Shown: positions 36,550 through 45,017 of the stretch, in pieces
Position numbering within the stretch: the stretch's first letter is position 1
Layout: every line of letters begins with the position of its first letter
Origin: an uncultured Acidimicrobiia bacterium
Lineage (GTDB): Bacteria; Actinomycetota; Acidimicrobiia; Spongiisociales; JAENVV01
Direction: 5' to 3'
Length of the DNA stretch: 64,000 bases
Assembly: GCA_965366365.1 (NCBI GenBank)
Contig: CBDUEV010000006.1
Span: 1,429 to 65,428 of the forward strand
Notes under the pieces: generated by a model
What the model saw: the letters and a program-made list of their open reading frames with translations, nothing else
Told to the model about the DNA's origin: nothing
Database searches by the model: none
Translations under genes and position numbers: made by a program

Positions 36550-37629
36550 CTAGACCTTGATGATGCCCTCTTGCTCGGCCTTGACTCGGAAGTCGTGAGG
36601 ATTCGAGGCAGTGCTCATGGCGGTCTGGAACGAGATATCGCCATTCTTGAAGAGGTTGAGGATCGACTGGTCGAAAGTCTGCATGCCGTAGAACTCGGAT
36701 TCTCTGATCACCTCGACCAGGCTGTGGGTCTGTGTTGAGTCCACGATCCGGTCGAAGACACGTCCGTTCATGGTCATGATCTCCACGGCCGGCGCCCGAC
36801 CTCCGTCTGACTTCTCGAGCAGTCGCTGACTGACGACGCCCTTCAGGGTGGAGCCCAGGAGAATGCGGATCTGTTGCTGCTGGTAGGGCGGGAAAAAGTC
36901 GATGATCCGGTTTATCGTCTCGGTGGCGTCGATGGTGTGCAGCGTCGACAGGACGAGGTGTCCGGTCTCGGCAGCCTGGAGAGCGGCCTTGACGGTCTCG
37001 GCGTCACGCATCTCGCCGATCAGAATCACGTCCGGATCCTGCCGGAGAGCACGTCGTAGAGCCTCGGTGAAGTCCTTCGTGTCCATGCCCACTTCGCGTT
37101 GGGCGATGATGGCGAGCTTGTCGCGGTGCAGCACCTCGATCGGGTCTTCGATGGTGATGATGTTCACGCGGCGGGTCTGGTTCATGTGGTCGATGATCGA
37201 CGCCAGCGTCGTCGTCTTGCCGGAACCGGTAGGACCGGTCACCAGCACGAGGCCGCGCGCTTCTGCGGCGAGCTTCTCGAGCACGGGAGGAAGGCCGAGT
37301 TCGGCAAAATCCTGGGTGGTGGGGAGCACACGGCGAAGGACGAGGCTGACCGAACCACGCTGCCGGAACACGTTGACCCGGAAACGTCCGAGTTCGGCCT
37401 TCCCGTAGGCGAAGTCGGCCTCGTTCATCTCCCGGAACTCGCCGGCGGCGCGCTGAGTGAAGATACTCTGTGCGTATTCCTCGGTGTCATTGGGGAGAAG
37501 CATCGGCAGGCTCGTCGGATGGAGTTCACCATCGATCCGCATGACCGGTGGGGAGCCCACCTTGAGATGGAGATCCGACGCCTCGACGTCGATCATCTTC
37601 TTCAGTAGCTCATCAAGAGACGCAGCCAC
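36550..37629 (-). CDS. pilT: type IV pilus retraction ATPase PilT family protein
   Basis: GPTGSGKTTTLASIIDHMN Walker A, Asp box, VLVGEMRD Walker B, PilT-specific AIRNLIRE-like region; 359 aa. Confidence 0.85.
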   Translation of the reverse strand: MAASLDELLKKMIDVEASDLHLKVGSPPVMRIDGELHPTSLPMLLPNDTEEYAQSIFTQRAAGEFREMNEADFAYGKAELGRFRVNVFRQRGSVSLVLRRVLPTTQDFAELGLPPVLEKLAAEARGLVLVTGPTGSGKTTTLASIIDHMNQTRRVNIITIEDPIEVLHRDKLAIIAQREVGMDTKDFTEALRRALRQDPDVILIGEMRDAETVKAALQAAETGHLVLSTLHTIDATETINRIIDFFPPYQQQQIRILLGSTLKGVVSQRLLEKSDGGRAPAVEIMTMNGRVFDRIVDSTQTHSLVEVIRESEFYGMQTFDQSILNLFKNGDISFQTAMSTASNPHDFRVKAEQEGIIKV

Positions 37630-37686: not shown

Positions 37687-38724
37687 TTAACCGATCTCCC
37701 AGAACCGACCCGCGCTTTTTGCCGCGAGGTCGACGATGCGCCAGGCGCCCGGTTGCGACTGGACGGGCAGGTGATCGGAGGGGGCCTCCCCCATGGCTCC
37801 GTCGATGGTGGCGGTCACCGACGTCCTGATCGCCGCCAGGTCATAGCCGCCCTCCAGAAAGAACAAGGTCCGCTTGGCGGGAACCAAGCCCTTGAGTCGG
37901 TACGCCATCGACTGATAGTCGCCTGCTCGCAGCATCCCGTCGGCCAGAGGGTCCTCTTCCCGGGCGTCGTATCCGGCGCTCACCAGAATCCAGTCGGGTT
38001 CGAACTGTCGCAGAACCGGCTCCACCACACGGTCGAAGGCAGCCAGGTAAGCGTCACCACCGGTGTAGGCAGGGAAGGGTATGTTCAGGGTGGTTCCCTC
38101 GCCGGGGCCGTACCCGGTTTCGTCCAGCCAGCCGCTCCCGGGGTAGAACGGGTATTGATGGGTCGAGATGTAGAGCACCCTCCCATCGGCGTTGAAGAGA
38201 TCCTGCGTCCCGTTCCCGTGGTGAACGTCCCAATCGACGATGGCTACCCGATTGCCCAGCTCTGCCAGCATCTGGGCGGTGACCGCCACGTTGTTGAACA
38301 GGCAGAAGCCCATCGCCTGACTCTCGAGGGCGTGATGTCCCGGGGGGCGGACCGCCAGGAAAGCCATCTCGGCGACCCCCTCCATGAGGGCGGCAACCGC
38401 TTGCGGCCCGGCGCCGGCCGCCCTGATCGCCGCCTCCCACGAGCGAGCATTGGCGTAGGTGTCGCCATCCAGGTGCCCTCCCCCCGCTGCGCAGAATCGC
38501 TCGATCGCCGTCTGATACTCGACCGGGTGGACCGCCGCGAGCAGTTCCCGATCGACCTCTTCCGCCTCGAGTTCGATGAGAGGAGCTTTGGCGTTGCGGG
38601 CTCCTTCGACGGCCGCGGGCACTCGTTCGGGCCGCTCCGGGTGCCAGTCCTCGTGCATGTGGAGGAGAAAGGCCGGGTGACTGATCAGCAACGCACGCAT
38701 GGCTCCACTCTGGCACACGACCAC
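37687..38724 (-). CDS. histone deacetylase superfamily protein (AcuC/AphA-like)
   Basis: DWDVHHGNGTQ, zinc ligands D..H..D, GGGY motif (FLEGGYD). Confidence 0.8.
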   Translation of the reverse strand: MVVCQSGAMRALLISHPAFLLHMHEDWHPERPERVPAAVEGARNAKAPLIELEAEEVDRELLAAVHPVEYQTAIERFCAAGGGHLDGDTYANARSWEAAIRAAGAGPQAVAALMEGVAEMAFLAVRPPGHHALESQAMGFCLFNNVAVTAQMLAELGNRVAIVDWDVHHGNGTQDLFNADGRVLYISTHQYPFYPGSGWLDETGYGPGEGTTLNIPFPAYTGGDAYLAAFDRVVEPVLRQFEPDWILVSAGYDAREEDPLADGMLRAGDYQSMAYRLKGLVPAKRTLFFLEGGYDLAAIRTSVTATIDGAMGEAPSDHLPVQSQPGAWRIVDLAAKSAGRFWEIG

Positions 38725-38732
38725 CGGCGAGT

Positions 38733-39509
38733 GTGCCTCTCAAAGCCCGTAAAGTGGCGCTACCTCAACGCGGAGCCGTGGTGAACCTCATTGTGCGTGG
38801 AACGTGGCCGGGTCCAATGGTCCTCAGACAGGGCTGGGCGAAGGCCAACGTCCGTCCCTGGAACGACGACATACCCGACGCCCACCTCCGGCTCGTCAGG
38901 GGAAGCGAGAGCTTCGTGCGCTCGTGCGCCGAGGCTGTCAGAGAAGCCGGCGCCGGCGGCGTGATCTCTCCCCCGGTCGCGGAGACCGGGACGGGCCTCT
39001 GGAATCGAGCTGGTTTTCGCCCGTATCTGTCTCTCGACCTCTACACCCGTGATCTCTTCCAGCCGCTCGAGGAGCCTGCCCATCCGGTCGAGAAGGAGAG
39101 CCCCGGCGACTGGAGCGGTCCCGTTGCCATCGACCGGGCCTCCTTCGAACCGATCTGGCGGCTGGGGGGTCTCGGCCTTCGCGAAGCCAAGGATGCCACT
39201 CCCCGCAGCGCCTTCCTCTGCTCGAGGCAGCCCGACGGGACGATGGTCGGTTTCGCCGTCGTGGGCGCCGGTAGTGCCGTTGCCTACCTCCAGCGTGTCG
39301 CCGTTCATCCGGATCATCGAGGAGCCGGATACGGGCGGAGTCTGGTTCGCGCCGCCTTGCGCTGGGGGCGCAACCACGGCGGAAGGACGATGCTCCTCAA
39401 CACCCAGCGCGACAACTGGGCAGCTGCCGTTCTCTATCAGTCGGAGGGTTTCGAGCGCATGCCCTCGGTCCTCGAGGTGCTCCGCTTTGGGGATCCGCCA
39501 CTAACGTGA
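38733..39509 (+). CDS. GNAT family N-acetyltransferase
   Basis: C-terminal acetyl-CoA motif VAVHPDHRGAGYGRSLV; start uncertain. Confidence 0.55.
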   Translation: MPLKARKVALPQRGAVVNLIVRGTWPGPMVLRQGWAKANVRPWNDDIPDAHLRLVRGSESFVRSCAEAVREAGAGGVISPPVAETGTGLWNRAGFRPYLSLDLYTRDLFQPLEEPAHPVEKESPGDWSGPVAIDRASFEPIWRLGGLGLREAKDATPRSAFLCSRQPDGTMVGFAVVGAGSAVAYLQRVAVHPDHRGAGYGRSLVRAALRWGRNHGGRTMLLNTQRDNWAAAVLYQSEGFERMPSVLEVLRFGDPPLT

Positions 39510-40849
39510 GTCCTCATCTGGGGAGGGATCCGTTGCCGCCAGCTCTACCCGACCGTTACCAACTCGAAGTTCGCCTCGGCCGCGACGGCGACGTCGAGGA
39601 ATGGTTGGCGATGGATACCGCCCTGGACAGGCCGGTCCTGGTCCGGGCTCTCGGACCGGAAGCCGGTCCGGAGCGCTCCGAGCAGTTCCTGGAGGCGGTC
39701 AGGGGCGCCGCTCAGGTTTCGCATATCCACTTGGCCGCCATCTACACGGCCGCTCACTTGGAGGATTCGACGTACTCGATCTCGGAGTGGGTGGGAGGCA
39801 TGACCCTCGCCGACCGCACCGCCGCCCGCGAGCCGATACCTCCTGAGGAGTTCGTTCCGAATGCCGCCGGACTGGCCGAAGCATTGGCCGTCCTCCACGC
39901 CGCCGGCCAAATCCACGGGGCAATCGACGCCCGGGCCATATTCTTCTCGGCCGCCCACCCCGCCAAGCTGGCGGCTTTCGGCCGCCCTCCCGTGACTCGA
40001 TACGCCAGCAACGACGTCGAGGCTCTGGCCACCACGCTCGAACGAACCCTGACCGGTGGCGAGCCCGGGAACGTGCCACCGTCGCAGGTGGTGGATCGCC
40101 TGTCCCCGATCGTGGACGGAGCCTTGTCCGAAGCCCGCACCGGCATGTTCGATGCCGGCGCTCTCGCCAGCGCTCTCCACACGGCTCCCACCCCCAACAT
40201 GGCGGCCGCTCCCGCCGGAGAGGGCTGGAACTGGAAGTGGTTGGCGCCCGCGGCGTTTCTGGCTCTCGTCGCCATCGTGCTCACCGCCATCGGAGTTTCC
40301 TTGGTCGACGACGGCGGAAGGGCGGCGGCTGTTCCGACCCCCACCACGAGCCCTTCCCCCACGCCTCCCCCCGTGTCCTCGCCACCTTCGGAGAGCGAGC
40401 CCCCCCAGACGTCCGACGGCCCGCCGGTCACGGTGGTCAGGGCTTTCTCCTTCGACCCCACCGGCGATGGGGAGGAGCACGAGGAACTGGCCGCGGCTGC
40501 GATCGACGGGGACTTCGCGACGAGTTGGAAGACCGAGAGCTACCTCGATCCCCTTCCTCTTCAGAAGGCGGGCGTGGGACTCGCCGTCGAAGTCGACGGC
40601 TCGCCGAGCGGCGTCGATATCACGGGGATTCGCAATGGAACGGTGTGGGAGCTGCGGTGGAGCCCGGCGGCGGCCGCCGCTTTGGCGGACTGGACGGGTG
40701 TGGCAGAGGGAACCGTTCGAGATGGCCAGCTCTCCGCCGACCTCCCTGAGCAGGCCGGTGGAGTTTGGCTCATCTGGTTCACGGACCTTCCCGCCGACAA
40801 CGAAGGTACCTACAACTCCACGGTGGCAGAAGTACGATTCCGGCCATGA
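39506..40849 (+). CDS. protein-kinase-like (pseudokinase) domain - TM - extracytoplasmic beta-rich domain protein; homologous in architecture to the C-terminal half of mycobacterial MviN
   Basis: N-terminal ~230 aa kinase-like fold lacking the Gly-loop, VAIK Lys, HRD and DFG; one TM (WLAPAAFLALVAIVLTAIGV); Pro/Ser/Thr linker; C-terminal ~150 aa domain (FDPTGDGEE..SWKTESY..GVWLIWFTDLP). It sits immediately upstream of the ECF sigma. Confidence 0.6.
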   Translation: MSPHLGRDPLPPALPDRYQLEVRLGRDGDVEEWLAMDTALDRPVLVRALGPEAGPERSEQFLEAVRGAAQVSHIHLAAIYTAAHLEDSTYSISEWVGGMTLADRTAAREPIPPEEFVPNAAGLAEALAVLHAAGQIHGAIDARAIFFSAAHPAKLAAFGRPPVTRYASNDVEALATTLERTLTGGEPGNVPPSQVVDRLSPIVDGALSEARTGMFDAGALASALHTAPTPNMAAAPAGEGWNWKWLAPAAFLALVAIVLTAIGVSLVDDGGRAAAVPTPTTSPSPTPPPVSSPPSESEPPQTSDGPPVTVVRAFSFDPTGDGEEHEELAAAAIDGDFATSWKTESYLDPLPLQKAGVGLAVEVDGSPSGVDITGIRNGTVWELRWSPAAAAALADWTGVAEGTVRDGQLSADLPEQAGGVWLIWFTDLPADNEGTYNSTVAEVRFRP

Positions 40850-41427
40850 CCGCAAGTCGCGCCTCCGAAGATCGCGTTTTGGTGGATCGCTATCTCTCCG
40901 GGGACAGAGACGCGTTCGATCGGCTCATGGCTGCACACGAAGACCGCGTGTTCTCCGTGTGCCTGCGCGTCATGCGGGACCGCGAGGCGGCACTCGACGC
41001 CGTTCAGGAGACCTTCATCACGGTCTTTCGCAAGGCCCACATGTACAACGGTCAATCCGCTTTCTCCACCTGGCTGTACCGCGTGGCGGTCAACACGTGC
41101 TACGACCAGCTGCGAAAGGCGAAACGCCGGCGCACGGAACCGATTCCCGACGGTCGCGACCCGGCCGACCCGACGGTCGAGGACGAACTCACCGCCGTCG
41201 AACTCCGACCCGACCTCCAGGCTGCGCTCGCCACGCTCTCGGACGAGTTTCGCGACGCGGTCGTCCTGAGCGACCTCGAGGGGCTCCCCCTCTCCGAGGT
41301 CGGCGAGATACTGGGCGTACCGGTCGGGACCGTGAAATCCCGGGTCTTTCGGGGCCGGCGCCTGCTCGCCGATCAACTGAGGAACCTTCAGGCCAACCCG
41401 CAACGTCAGAGTGACGAAGATGCATAG
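40846..41427 (+). CDS. ECF RNA polymerase sigma factor (SigM-like by position)
   Basis: Sigma-70 region 2 (FDRLMAAHEDRVFSVCLRVMRD..AVQETFITVF) and region 4 (LSDEFRDAVVLSDLEGLPLSEVGEILGVPVGTVKSRVFRGR); ATGA overlap with the upstream gene. Confidence 0.85.
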   Translation: MTASRASEDRVLVDRYLSGDRDAFDRLMAAHEDRVFSVCLRVMRDREAALDAVQETFITVFRKAHMYNGQSAFSTWLYRVAVNTCYDQLRKAKRRRTEPIPDGRDPADPTVEDELTAVELRPDLQAALATLSDEFRDAVVLSDLEGLPLSEVGEILGVPVGTVKSRVFRGRRLLADQLRNLQANPQRQSDEDA

Positions 41428-42250
41428 CCACGATTTCGATCTCATCGCTCAGCTCGCCGAGGGCTCTCTTCTTGGTGACGACATTCGGGCCGCCGAGGCG
41501 GCAGTGGAGTCCTGTGACGAGTGCCGCCTCGAGTTCGAGGCCCAGTCGTTCATTCTGGGTGCGCTCTCCGACGTCGCGCCCGCCAGGTTGACCGACTTGG
41601 AGCGTGCCCGGCTGCACAGAACCGTCACGGAAGCCACGCTGGCGCCGGTCGTTCCCGAGCGGCAGCGCTCCGCTTTCTCGGTGTGGCTCCCCAAGCTGGC
41701 GATCGCCGCAGCCGCCGTGGCCTTCGTCGGCGTGGTCGGCGTCGGCATCCAAACCCGGGGCGCCAGTGACGAGGCCGCCTCGGGATTCGCCGCAGAAGAC
41801 TCTTCGCAAGAGGCAGGCGAATCAACGGCCATGGCAAGCGAGGAAGGAGCCATGGAGGCGGAATCCGCCCTGGCGGCCCCCACCGATGAGGCGCTCGCCT
41901 TCGACGAAACGCTCGAGGACGGAGCCGGCGCCGTGGCCTCCTCTGCCGCCCTGCTCCAGCCGCTCGACCTTGGCGTGATCAGCAGCCAGAGCTTCGAGGC
42001 CCTGACATTCGAGCGGGCTACACCGGGGGCAGTTCCGGCGCGGACGGGCGACCAGGTGCCGTTGGAGCCCTTTCCGTTCGCCTGTGTGGGAGCCGCGGTG
42101 GGGACCTATGGCGAGGAAGAAGACATGATCTTCGCCGGGGTTGCGGTTCTGGATGGCAGGGTGGTGGAGATCCTCGCCTTCAGCGATGAGATCGTCGCTC
42201 TCGACCCCAAGACCTGCACCCTCGTCGACAGCAACGTCATCGGTCGCTGA
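41420..42250 (+). CDS. anti-sigma factor (single-TM, CxxC-containing)
   Basis: Overlaps the sigma stop. N-terminal CDEC motif, a central TM (LPKLAIAAAAVAFVGVVGVGI) and an extracytoplasmic C-terminus; typical sigma/anti-sigma pairing. Confidence 0.6.
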   Translation: MHSHDFDLIAQLAEGSLLGDDIRAAEAAVESCDECRLEFEAQSFILGALSDVAPARLTDLERARLHRTVTEATLAPVVPERQRSAFSVWLPKLAIAAAAVAFVGVVGVGIQTRGASDEAASGFAAEDSSQEAGESTAMASEEGAMEAESALAAPTDEALAFDETLEDGAGAVASSAALLQPLDLGVISSQSFEALTFERATPGAVPARTGDQVPLEPFPFACVGAAVGTYGEEEDMIFAGVAVLDGRVVEILAFSDEIVALDPKTCTLVDSNVIGR

Positions 42251-42307: not shown

Positions 42308-42586
42308 ATGGACGAATTCGCAGCAAGGTTCGCCGACAAACTGGAAGAGTACGCCGGCAAGGTACGCCTTCTCACGGTCGATCGAATCAACCGGATCCTC
42401 ACAATGACCGCTCTCGGCCTCGTCATGGCCTTTCTCGCTTTCGTGGCCATCCTGTTTGTGATCGTGGCTCTTTTCCGGTTGGTGGCGGTTTACACCACCG
42501 TCGAGGGGGCCTACGCCATATTCGGTGGATTATTCCTCCTCGCCGGCGCGTTGGTGTGGTGGAAGCGAAACGCCGAACCAACCTGA
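42308..42586 (+). CDS. small two-TM membrane protein
   Basis: 92 aa; amphipathic N-terminus then two TM helices. Confidence 0.45.
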   Translation: MDEFAARFADKLEEYAGKVRLLTVDRINRILTMTALGLVMAFLAFVAILFVIVALFRLVAVYTTVEGAYAIFGGLFLLAGALVWWKRNAEPT

Positions 42587-42593
42587 GGAAACC

Positions 42594-43514
42594 ATGACCG
42601 AGAACGTCATCATCATCGGCTCCGGCCCCGCCGGCTACACCGCCGCACTCTACGCCGCCCGTGCCAGCCTCGACCCACTCGTCTTCGAGGGAAGCCAACG
42701 AGGCGGTCAGCTCATGATCACCACCGATGTGGAGAACTACCCCGGGTTCCCCGACGGCATCATGGGGCCGGAGCTCATGGAGCACTTCCGCAAGCAGGCG
42801 GAACGTTTTGGGGCGCGACTCAAGACGGAGGACGTGACCAAAGTCGACCTCACCGAGCGTCCCTTCAAGGTTTGGGTGGGCGCCGACGAATACGAGGCGC
42901 ACACGGTCATCATCTCAACCGGAGCCAACGCACGCTGGCTGGGCGTTCCCGGCGAGGAGCGTCTCACCGGACGCGGCGTGAGTGCTTGCGCCACGTGTGA
43001 TGGGTTCTTCTTTCGAGATCGCCAGTTGATCGTTGTTGGCGGAGGTGACACCGCCATGGAGGAGGCCCTCTTCCTGACCAAGTTCGCCTCCAAGGTCTTC
43101 GTCGTCCATCGCCGCGACGAGTTCCGCGCTTCCAAGATCATGGCTCAGCGCGTCCTCGAGCATCCGAAGGTCGAAGTCGTCTGGAACGCCGTCGTCGAGG
43201 AAATCCTCGGCGAGGACGAGGTGACGGGCGCCGTCCTTCGGGACACCGTGACCAACGAAACACGGCAGATGAAGATCGACGGTGTGTTCGTGGCCATCGG
43301 CCACAAGCCCACGACGGAACTGTTCGATGGTCAGTTGAAGCTGACCGACACCGGCTATATCGACCTCGAGGGCCCTTCGACTGCCACCAACGTGGCGGGC
43401 GTCTTCGCGGCGGGTGACGTGGCCGATCATGTGTATCGTCAAGCCGTCACGGCGGCAGGCACCGGGTGTCGGGCCGCCATCGATGCCGAACGATGGCTCG
43501 CCGACCACGAGTAG
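42594..43514 (+). CDS. trxB: thioredoxin-disulfide reductase
   Basis: FAD GSGPAGYTAA, redox CATCDG, NADPH GGGDTAMEEA. Confidence 0.9.
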   Translation: MTENVIIIGSGPAGYTAALYAARASLDPLVFEGSQRGGQLMITTDVENYPGFPDGIMGPELMEHFRKQAERFGARLKTEDVTKVDLTERPFKVWVGADEYEAHTVIISTGANARWLGVPGEERLTGRGVSACATCDGFFFRDRQLIVVGGGDTAMEEALFLTKFASKVFVVHRRDEFRASKIMAQRVLEHPKVEVVWNAVVEEILGEDEVTGAVLRDTVTNETRQMKIDGVFVAIGHKPTTELFDGQLKLTDTGYIDLEGPSTATNVAGVFAAGDVADHVYRQAVTAAGTGCRAAIDAERWLADHE

Positions 43515-43539: not shown

Positions 43540-43866
43540 ATGGGAGACAACACACAGAACCTCACGGACGCGACATTCAAGGACGCCATTTCGTCGGCCA
43601 CCCCGGTCCTGGTCGATTTCTGGGCCGAATGGTGCGGACCGTGCCGGGCTGTCGCGCCGGTGCTCGACGCCATCGCGGCGGAGTACCCGGGCAAGATCTC
43701 GATTGCCAAACTCAATATCGATGACTTCCCGCAGCCGGCCGCCGACAACGGAGTGATGAGCATTCCCACCATGATCGTGTACAAGGAAGGCGTGGCGGTG
43801 AAGAAGATCGTCGGCGCCCGGTCCAAGGCGGACATGGTGAAAGAACTCTCCGACATCCTCGCCTAG
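43540..43866 (+). CDS. trxA: thioredoxin
   Basis: WCGPC active site; 108 aa. Confidence 0.9.
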   Translation: MGDNTQNLTDATFKDAISSATPVLVDFWAEWCGPCRAVAPVLDAIAAEYPGKISIAKLNIDDFPQPAADNGVMSIPTMIVYKEGVAVKKIVGARSKADMVKELSDILA

Positions 43867-44003: not shown

Positions 44004-45017
44004 ATGCGGCTGTATCGAACCGGGGACTCCGGGGGGCCGGTCCGCGATATTCAGCGACGGCTTGCGGCGGTGGGTCACTCGAGCCGGCCCGATCCTCCTG
44101 GAGAGTTCGGGCAGGGAACCGAGTCGGCCGTGCTGGCGTTTCAGGAGGAACGCGGCCTGGCGCGGGACGGTATCGTCGGCCCCGATACGTGGCGAGCGCT
44201 GTACGAAGCGGGCTACGCCCTCGGTGACCGCCTCCTCTTCTATCGCTCCCCCATGCTGCGCGGCGACGACGTCGCCGACCTTCAACGGCGACTCAACGAA
44301 TTCGGATTCGACGCCGACAAGGTCGACGGGGTCTTCGGTCCGCTCACCCATCGGGCGGTTCTCGACTTCGAAGCCAACCGGAGCATGGCAGAAGACGGCG
44401 TGGTCGGCCCACGGGTGATCGAAGAGTTGAAGGCGCTGCAACGAACGCCCCCACAAGCCGGTCGAGAACGGGTACGCGAGAGGGAGTGGCTGCGCGGGCT
44501 CCCCCGCACGGTGGTGGGGACCAGGATCTACCTCGATCCAGCCGGGTCGGAAGACGCCCTCGGCGCCGCCCTCTGGGACCTGACGACGGAAATCTTCGTC
44601 GGTTTCCAGAATTTAGGCGGCGTTCCGGTCCTTTCTCACAGCGTGGACGTGTCCCCGCCTGCCACGGTGCGGGCTCGTCGCGCCAATCGCCTCGGGGCGG
44701 ACCTGACGCTCTCGTTTCGAGCTCCCGGGCCGGAGGGAACCGGCATCTACTTTTTTCAGAGTCCGCACAGTAGAAGCGAGGCGGGATTCCTCCTGGCGTC
44801 GGTGTTGGCCGACGCGCTCGGTGTATCGATCAGCGGTCGCACCACGCCGATGCTCAAGAACACCCGCGCCCCCGCCGTCCTGATCGCCATCGAACCGACA
44901 CCGAAGATCGCCGACGCCGTATTGGCCGGGGTGTGCGATTTCTTCCGAAGGGCGGCCGAGGAGATGAAGACCCCCGACCCGAAGAACGCCGCAGTCGCGG
45001 CCACGCTCGAACCCTAG
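44004..45017 (+). CDS. cwlM: N-acetylmuramoyl-L-alanine amidase family regulator with two peptidoglycan-binding domains (CwlM-like)
   Basis: Two PG_binding_1 repeats (DIQRRLAAVGH.., DLQRRLNEFGF..) plus a C-terminal amidase_3 domain; conserved position after trxB-trxA. Confidence 0.8.
   Translation: MRLYRTGDSGGPVRDIQRRLAAVGHSSRPDPPGEFGQGTESAVLAFQEERGLARDGIVGPDTWRALYEAGYALGDRLLFYRSPMLRGDDVADLQRRLNEFGFDADKVDGVFGPLTHRAVLDFEANRSMAEDGVVGPRVIEELKALQRTPPQAGRERVREREWLRGLPRTVVGTRIYLDPAGSEDALGAALWDLTTEIFVGFQNLGGVPVLSHSVDVSPPATVRARRANRLGADLTLSFRAPGPEGTGIYFFQSPHSRSEAGFLLASVLADALGVSISGRTTPMLKNTRAPAVLIAIEPTPKIADAVLAGVCDFFRRAAEEMKTPDPKNAAVAATLEP

Follow-up and report, generated by a model that had tools for sequence, protein, structure and literature searches.

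An Acidimicrobiia member of the MviN-type pseudokinase family, encoded apart from MurJ and directly upstream of sigM

A 64,000-nt stretch of contig CBDUEV010000006.1 from an uncultured Acidimicrobiia bacterium (here called the window; coordinates are window positions unless another locus is named) encodes a free-standing protein that is a true homologue of the pseudokinase-transmembrane-ectodomain module of Mycobacterium tuberculosis Rv3910 (MviN), in both of its domains and in its genomic position. It is an orthologue of that module. It is probably the Acidimicrobiia version of this actinobacterial module, consisting of an ActPs3-class pseudokinase, a transmembrane (TM) helix, and a CBM32-like domain, and acting as a noncatalytic sensor or scaffold. 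Relatives of this Acidimicrobiia family are encoded by 325 GTDB species representatives, and we examined 80 loci. The family is a divergent and trimmed member of the group, having lost the murJ neighborhood and the FhaA docking tail and kept the coupling to sigM. The pseudokinase class has already been published and stand-alone genes have already been annotated; the find is genuine, if rather ordinary. What is particular to the Acidimicrobiia family is the lack of murJ within 10 kb, the lack of a Thr947-type site, and a sigM link kept in 80/80 loci.

The pseudokinase and its catalytic motifs

The longest open reading frame (ORF) at this position, 39506..40849 on the forward strand, starts with GTG at 39506 and encodes 447 amino acids (aa). 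An earlier reading of the DNA made from its letters only (the sequence-only reading) had taken this as the product. The ORF exists as described, but the likely product is 438 aa long and starts at TTG 39533, because homologues open with MPPALPDRY, nine codons inside the longest ORF, and a Shine-Dalgarno box (GGGAGG) lies 6 nt before this TTG. We thus place the free-standing pseudokinase-TM-CBM32 gene at 39533..40849 (+), while residue numbers below follow the 447-aa ORF. The proposed layout (kinase-like domain, single TM helix, Pro/Thr/Ser linker, and beta-rich ectodomain) matches the AlphaFold2 model (predicted local distance difference test score [pLDDT] of 87), which has a kinase fold at residues 17 to 226, a TM helix at 243 to 267, a disordered Pro/Thr/Ser segment at 270 to 303, and a beta domain at 309 to 447. 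On the forward strand, the cytoplasmic pseudokinase domain thus occupies 39554..40183 and the single TM helix 40232..40306, just after an interfacial W-x-W-[KR]-W motif. The Pro/Thr/Ser-rich extracytoplasmic linker (40307..40429; residues 268 to 308) is disordered, with pLDDT <50 and the lowest conservation in the protein. It leads into the CBM32 or F5/8 type C (galactose-binding-like) domain at 40430..40846, which carries the motif DGDxxTxWxTExY.

A kinase-family search of the N terminus, which the sequence-only reading had proposed as a check, came out positive. The domain matched Pfam PF07714 with an E value of 5.5e-8, exceeding the gathering score, and NCBIfam PknB_PASTA_kin at 8.5e-15, and its nearest solved structures in a PDB search were the M. 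tuberculosis PknB kinase domains (9e-12), with up to 30% identity in the N-lobe. Alignment to PknB and to active kinases bore out the claim that all of the catalytic motifs are degenerate. The Gly-rich loop reads LGRDGDVEE, and the VAVK position reads VLVR, so that the beta3 Lys is Arg47 (in 27 of the 28 family members). HGAIDARA stands in place of HRDxKxxN, with the H and G of H137-G138-A139 invariant in the family, and the DFG position reads AFG (A157-F-G159). The statement that there is no DFG was slightly loose, as the Asp is lost and the FG retained. Only ~10 residues separate the FG from helix F, compared to ~37 in the active kinase P0200, and the APE motif is gone.

These substitutions are fixed in 28 family members spanning 45 to 80% identity. 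The hinge reads E94-W95, and W95, the equivalent of W789 of Rv3910, is invariant in the family; R47, D141, and the H151-P-A-K154 motif are invariant or almost so. The mean majority-residue fraction was 0.73 for the pseudokinase N-lobe, the best conserved region, versus 0.59 for the ectodomain, and strong purifying selection acts on both folded domains. With Lys, HRD-Asp, Asn, and DFG-Asp all replaced in the alignment, a canonical ATP/Mg site is impossible, and the hinge Trp, whose counterpart in Rv3910 fills the adenine pocket, is present as well. Given that the dead motifs are fixed and that conservation peaks in the N-lobe, the domain is maintained for a noncatalytic role.

Relation to the MviN module and its fused, split, and orphan forms

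Homology to the Rv3910 module, as claimed in the sequence-only reading, is well founded. An hhalign comparison of the Acidimicrobiia family with 12 non-Acidimicrobiia modules aligned them end to end over 423 columns, with a probability of 100% and an E value of 4.1e-62. By BLASTP, the window protein matched the stand-alone protein P0176 over its full length (3e-25) and a 1187-aa MurJ fusion (P0264) in both the ectodomain (1e-15) and the kinase domain (2e-10). The ectodomain profile reached the C terminus of the same fusion, residues 1042 to 1184, at 4.7e-19, which answers the comparison with the MviN extracellular domain that had been suggested. The step to Rv3910 itself is provided by P0182, a stand-alone protein from Amycolatopsis that is annotated as "protein kinase family protein," aligns with the crystallized Rv3910 pseudokinase at an E value of 1.5e-38, and carries the VALT and LxxDHPxR motifs published for the pseudokinase (PMC12599244). 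Direct comparisons of the window pseudokinase with the Rv3910 domain gave 1e-10 by Foldseek, with a TM-score up to 0.71, and 1.8e-6 by hhalign against residues 681 to 963, with a probability of 90%. The slot upstream of sigM-antisigma-trxB-trxA is also common to the fused, split, and orphan forms described below.

The hinge supplies a further character. In all pseudokinases of the set, the window protein, the fusion, and Rv3910 among them, a Trp follows the conserved Glu; in Rv3910 this residue, W789, has been named as the C-spine filler (PMC12599244). Active kinases with the same ectodomain have Leu, Tyr, His, Phe, or Arg there, and never Trp. The hinge Trp is, from these alignments, a derived character uniting the pseudokinase groups. 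In a neighbor-joining tree of 149 columns, all pseudokinases grouped together (bootstrap, 67/100), with the Acidimicrobiia family (100/100) as sister to the remainder. This topology fits vertical descent predating the split between Acidimicrobiia and Actinomycetes.

The ActPs3 class was described by O'Boyle et al. (bioRxiv 10.1101/2025.01.12.632604) and is reviewed in PMC12599244. The window protein likewise lacks the VAIK Lys, the HRD Asp, and the DFG Asp and has a largely deleted activation loop. Our assignment uses these motifs together with hhalign to Rv3910-type sequences and the neighbor-joining tree, which stand in for the constraint-based models and tree of those authors. Other ActPs3 members are without a carbohydrate-binding domain (PMC12599244), whereas the Acidimicrobiia family and its Actinomycetes relatives have one. 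Rv3910 (PDB 3OTV, 3OUN, and 3UQC; Gee et al. 2012, as cited in PMC12599244 and PMC6180346) likewise combines a dead kinase fold, a hinge Trp, and a shortened activation segment with one TM helix and an F5/8-type-C-like carbohydrate-binding ectodomain, and its gene also lies directly upstream of sigM-antisigma-trxB-trxC-cwlM. It differs in being fused to MurJ (PF03023), a domain that the window protein does not have, and in the size of its kinase domain (~250 residues, versus ~210 in the window protein, at ~18 to 22% identity).

The ectodomain fold is CBM32, a beta-sandwich of the galactose-binding-like superfamily. The domain had no significant match in Pfam, and its profile reached F5/8 type C proteins in the PDB at 0.026 through the DGDxxTxW motif, so that sequence methods by themselves merely hint at an F5/8 type C identity. 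The topology puts this predicted glycan-binding fold on the outer side of the membrane. A profile search of 1.84 billion representative proteins returned 3529 proteins at E<=1e-3, and the 44 at E<=1e-30 were the Acidimicrobiia family itself. Beyond the family it found stand-alone pseudokinases (~460 to 560 aa), active Ser/Thr kinases, and one 1187-aa MurJ fusion. The catalytically intact Ser/Thr kinases with a CBM32-like ectodomain (P0180, P0198, P0200, P0230, P0234, P0250, and P0252) lie at ~1e-19 to 1e-22 to the family profile and have Pkinase E values of 1e-40 to 1e-47. These PknB-type kinases (P0200, P0230, P0250, and others) share the topology of the window protein and have a homologous ectodomain, but they retain VAxK, HRD, N, DFG, and APE, which the window pseudokinase does not. 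Because intact Ser/Thr kinases carry it too, the CBM32-like ectodomain is a general actinobacterial kinase sensor module and is not peculiar to MviN.

Three arrangements of the module were seen. The fused form, in a Jiangellaceae metagenomic contig (L089), follows the order pcnA, NUDIX, DUF6049, MurJ-pseudokinase-CBM32, sigM, anti-sigma, trxB, trxA. Its 1187-aa protein (P0264/P0269; 8001-11564 of L089) has MurJ at residues 47 to 504, a weak kinase domain at 742 to 840, and the ectodomain at 1042 to 1184. Six Actinomycetes loci (Amycolatopsis, Thermasporomyces composti, Microbispora rosea, and three metagenomic Actinomycetes) show the split form, which has the same order with MurJ (529 to 578 aa) and the pseudokinase (498 to 561 aa) as separate genes. 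The Acidimicrobiia have the orphan form. The sequence-only reading had treated the free-standing gene as a special feature and had called for a survey of split and fused forms. The survey shows that it is not special: when the non-Acidimicrobiia profile was searched, every one of the 120 best matches was a stand-alone protein of 470 to 564 aa. RefSeq names several of these "protein kinase family protein," and JGI names some "putative peptidoglycan lipid II flippase." Free-standing genes are therefore common and already carry annotations, and stand-alone forms are the norm outside mycolata.

What sets the Acidimicrobiia apart is the neighborhood. Stand-alone Actinomycetes proteins (e.g., Amycolatopsis samaneae WP_425551100.1) have the same architecture, slot upstream of sigM, dead motifs, and EW hinge and are 60 to 120 residues longer than the Acidimicrobiia ones. 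Their genes have murJ (529 to 578 aa) immediately upstream, after NUDIX and DUF6049, whereas the window and 80 related species have pilT, a deacetylase, and a GNAT gene instead. That the pseudokinase is encoded without the flippase at this locus was confirmed, as no MurJ was found in the 64-kb window by Pfam on large ORFs, by a scan for multi-TM ORFs, or by tblastn with four actinobacterial MurJ proteins. DUF6049 homologues were likewise absent from the window and from 1.57 Mb of Acidimicrobiia loci. ORFs of 490 to 530 aa with 9 to 10 predicted TM helices, located upstream of the pseudokinase gene in three species (L045 2713-4188, L049 2906-4384, and L075 2168-3757), were considered as divergent MurJ and rejected, having no Pfam or NCBIfam match, and the multi-TM ORFs in L078 turned out to be MFS transporters.

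A few Acidimicrobiia loci have a MutT4-like NUDIX gene upstream of the pseudokinase (L031 8880-9296, L078 8505-8909, L030 7989-8393, L065 1177-1590, and L068 4-306). This gene sits right next to the pseudokinase gene in L031 and L078 and appears to be left over from the pcnA-NUDIX-DUF6049-murJ-pseudokinase order. Separately, a one-TM ORF of 141 to 152 aa is conserved in split loci (L087 5836-6294, L091 5423-5863, and L092 5453-5878) and does not occur in the Acidimicrobiia loci. It lies between murJ and the pseudokinase gene, and we considered it as the CwlM-binding MurJ linker (E541-F680) and discarded the idea, as there was no similarity.

Published work (PMC10166564) has placed the MviN pseudokinase extension only in mycobacteria and in those relatives that have arabinogalactan. 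The Jiangellaceae fusion lies outside mycolata and is thus at odds with this statement. Many Actinomycetes have the module as a separate gene, Jiangellaceae also have it as a fusion, and across a large Acidimicrobiia clade it is unlinked to murJ; it is therefore unlikely that its ectodomain has an arabinogalactan-specific ligand. Overall, the module is far older and wider than the published picture (PMC10166564).

Proposed role and alternatives

We propose that the module is a noncatalytic membrane scaffold or sensor. Its ectodomain would read cell-wall glycan on the outside, the surface of the pseudokinase would recruit cytoplasmic partners, and the output would bear on peptidoglycan precursor export or synthesis, in trans, through a MurJ encoded elsewhere. 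The model for a scaffold that couples a wall signal to precursor export is the work on Rv3910 (PMC12599244 and PMC6180346), and by analogy with it we infer regulation of the flippase in trans, or of a different target.

How partners are recruited would have to differ from Rv3910. According to the same two sources (PMC12599244 and PMC6180346), Thr947 of Rv3910 is phosphorylated by PknB and docks the FHA domain of FhaA. This Thr lies in AVADRT-EVLGP, where the stand-alone P0182 has ERT-QLI and so at least retains an aligned RT-x-x-I. The Acidimicrobiia family does not, and the juxtamembrane tail with Thr947 (ADRTEVL) is missing from it; the segment between the last kinase helix and the TM helix is only ~16 residues long (HTAPTPNMAAAPAGEG). 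The one Ser/Thr-rich column (242) belongs to the interfacial W-x-W-R-W motif, and the window protein has Asn there. The sequence-only reading had called the module the handle through which PknB and FhaA act and had suggested a search for an equivalent of Thr947. With a short tail and no conserved Thr, neither the site nor the route from PknB through phosphothreonine to FhaA is conserved in the Acidimicrobiia family, and the FhaA docking site is not universal. Because this tail is missing, recruitment would go through another surface or partner.

Several observations weigh against a MviN-like scaffold acting on MurJ. The family alignment shows no conserved Ser/Thr column in the juxtamembrane tail, and no murJ lies within 10 kb of the module, either in the window or across ~85 Acidimicrobiia loci (1.57 Mb). 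In Rv3910, the bulky aromatics F724 and W789 fill the ATP pocket; the position of F724 is taken by Glu32 in the window protein, next to an invariant W33 that corresponds to W725. In direct sequence comparison, active PknB is the closer match for the kinase domain (9e-12 in the PDB search), ahead of the Rv3910 domain (1.8e-6 and 90% by hhalign). The functional tie to MurJ would come solely from homology with Rv3910, and only sigM is kept beside the module in all three arrangements, which fits a sensor of SigM at least equally well.

The link to sigM is indeed tight. The gene for a 193-aa SigM-like extracytoplasmic function (ECF) sigma factor lies at 40846..41427 (+) and matches NCBIfam NF007225 at 7e-53, just under the model cut-off. 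Its ATG at 40846 overlaps the stop codon of the pseudokinase gene by 4 nt (ATGA, 40846-40849), and translation of the pseudokinase is coupled to that of sigM. The gene is directly downstream of the pseudokinase in all 80 Acidimicrobiia loci, with the 4-nt start/stop overlap possible in 45 of the 80. It likewise comes right after the module in each of the seven non-Acidimicrobiia loci that we examined, whether fused or split. An apparent 559-aa fusion of pseudokinase and sigma factor (P0023, from a 2.1-Mb ENA contig) is a frameshift read-through at the 4-nt overlap and was set aside as an assembly artefact.

The main alternative, although we consider it unlikely, is that the module serves above all as an accessory sensor for SigM and anti-SigM, in which the CBM32 domain reads the wall and modulates the anti-sigma factor or the release of SigM, and that the linkage to MurJ is secondary. 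Such a role would agree with the adjacency and overlap just described and with the fact that the class lost its adjacency to murJ yet kept its link to sigM. The evidence for it is synteny alone, however, and the pcnA...sigM-trxBA-cwlM-parBA region is a very stable oriC-side block, so that adjacency may reflect inheritance and not function; the work on Rv3910 (PMC12599244 and PMC6180346) ties the module to PknB/FhaA and peptidoglycan and not to SigM. A bolder version, in which SigM/anti-SigM and not the flippase is the conserved partner, is somewhat less likely still. In Acidimicrobiia, and perhaps in the ancestor of all Actinomycetota, the module would then be the third component of an ECF switch over the neighboring thioredoxin and cell-wall genes, and the mycobacterial MurJ fusion would be late. 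Alternatively, the protein might be the allosteric partner of an active Ser/Thr kinase with the same ectodomain, forming a pseudokinase-kinase heterodimer like HER3/EGFR. Many active kinases do share the ectodomain, the Rv3910 pseudokinase makes PknB-like back-to-back dimers (PMC12599244), and the N-lobe is the most conserved region, but neither the window nor the related loci yielded an active kinase with this ectodomain, and we regard this pairing as improbable.

Convergent origin and residual catalysis are both unlikely, each having in our estimate only a very small chance of being correct. An independently degenerated PknB-like kinase, merely convergent with the MviN module, might explain why searches with the kinase domain find active PknB proteins as the best matches, and the active kinases with the same ectodomain are possible ancestors. 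Such an origin is hard to square with the end-to-end hhalign match (E 4e-62), the shared derived hinge Trp and activation-segment deletion, the single clade formed by the pseudokinases, and the identical genomic slot. Unconventional catalysis through Arg47 and the near-invariant Asp141 or the HPAK motif would suit the strict conservation of these residues, and some beta3-Arg pseudokinases (ActPs2) are predicted ATP binders (PMC12599244). However, the Gly-rich loop, HRD-Asp, Asn, and DFG-Asp are all absent, and the protein shares its hinge Trp with Rv3910, for which neither ATP nor Mg is a ligand (PMC12599244).

A noncatalytic scaffold or sensor of the MviN type thus remains the reading we prefer. 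The unbroken link to sigM nevertheless raises the question of which partner the module truly reports to, and the Acidimicrobiia form offers a natural case for studying the module apart from the flippase.

Neighboring genes

The order sigM, anti-sigma, trxB, trxA, cwlM, parB, parA, gidB was recognized in the sequence-only reading and is present, with an extra 92-aa TM gene before trxB. The membrane anti-sigma factor gene (41420..42250, +; NF052375, 2.8e-7) has an ATG at 41420 that overlaps the sigma stop codon, and its longest ORF begins at GTG 41411. The 92-aa membrane protein without a family assignment (42308..42586, +) lies between the anti-sigma gene and trxB and is kept in 76 of the 80 loci. 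Thioredoxin reductase (trxB; 42594..43514, +), thioredoxin (trxA; 43540..43866, +), and a CwlM-like protein (44004..45017, +) follow, and the order continues as parB, parA, gidB, jag, yidC, yidD, rnpA, and dnaA.

Upstream of the pseudokinase are a GNAT acetyltransferase, a deacetylase, a PilT-like ATPase, a DinB-family gene, and the CCA-adding enzyme. The GNAT gene (38733..39509, +) ends 23 nt before the TTG start, where Actinomycetes have murJ. Together with the deacetylase (HDAC family, reverse strand) it forms a divergent pair at 37687-39509, kept in 70/80 (GNAT) and 67/80 (deacetylase) loci, that fills the slot of NUDIX-DUF6049-murJ in Actinomycetes. The ATPase, a lone PilT/T2SSE-type gene at 36550-37629 on the reverse strand, belongs to the conserved oriC-side block, has no further pilus genes around it, and is found in 59 of the 80 loci.

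Over its full length, the CwlM-like protein is orthologous to CwlM of Amycolatopsis (BLASTP, 7e-46), with two PG_binding_1 domains and an amidase domain in which Pfam detects no Amidase_3. The metal-ligand motifs of this domain are replaced, GHGG by AGSE, SLHND by SFRAP, and VEIGY by IAIEP, and a dead amidase and a dead kinase therefore share the locus.

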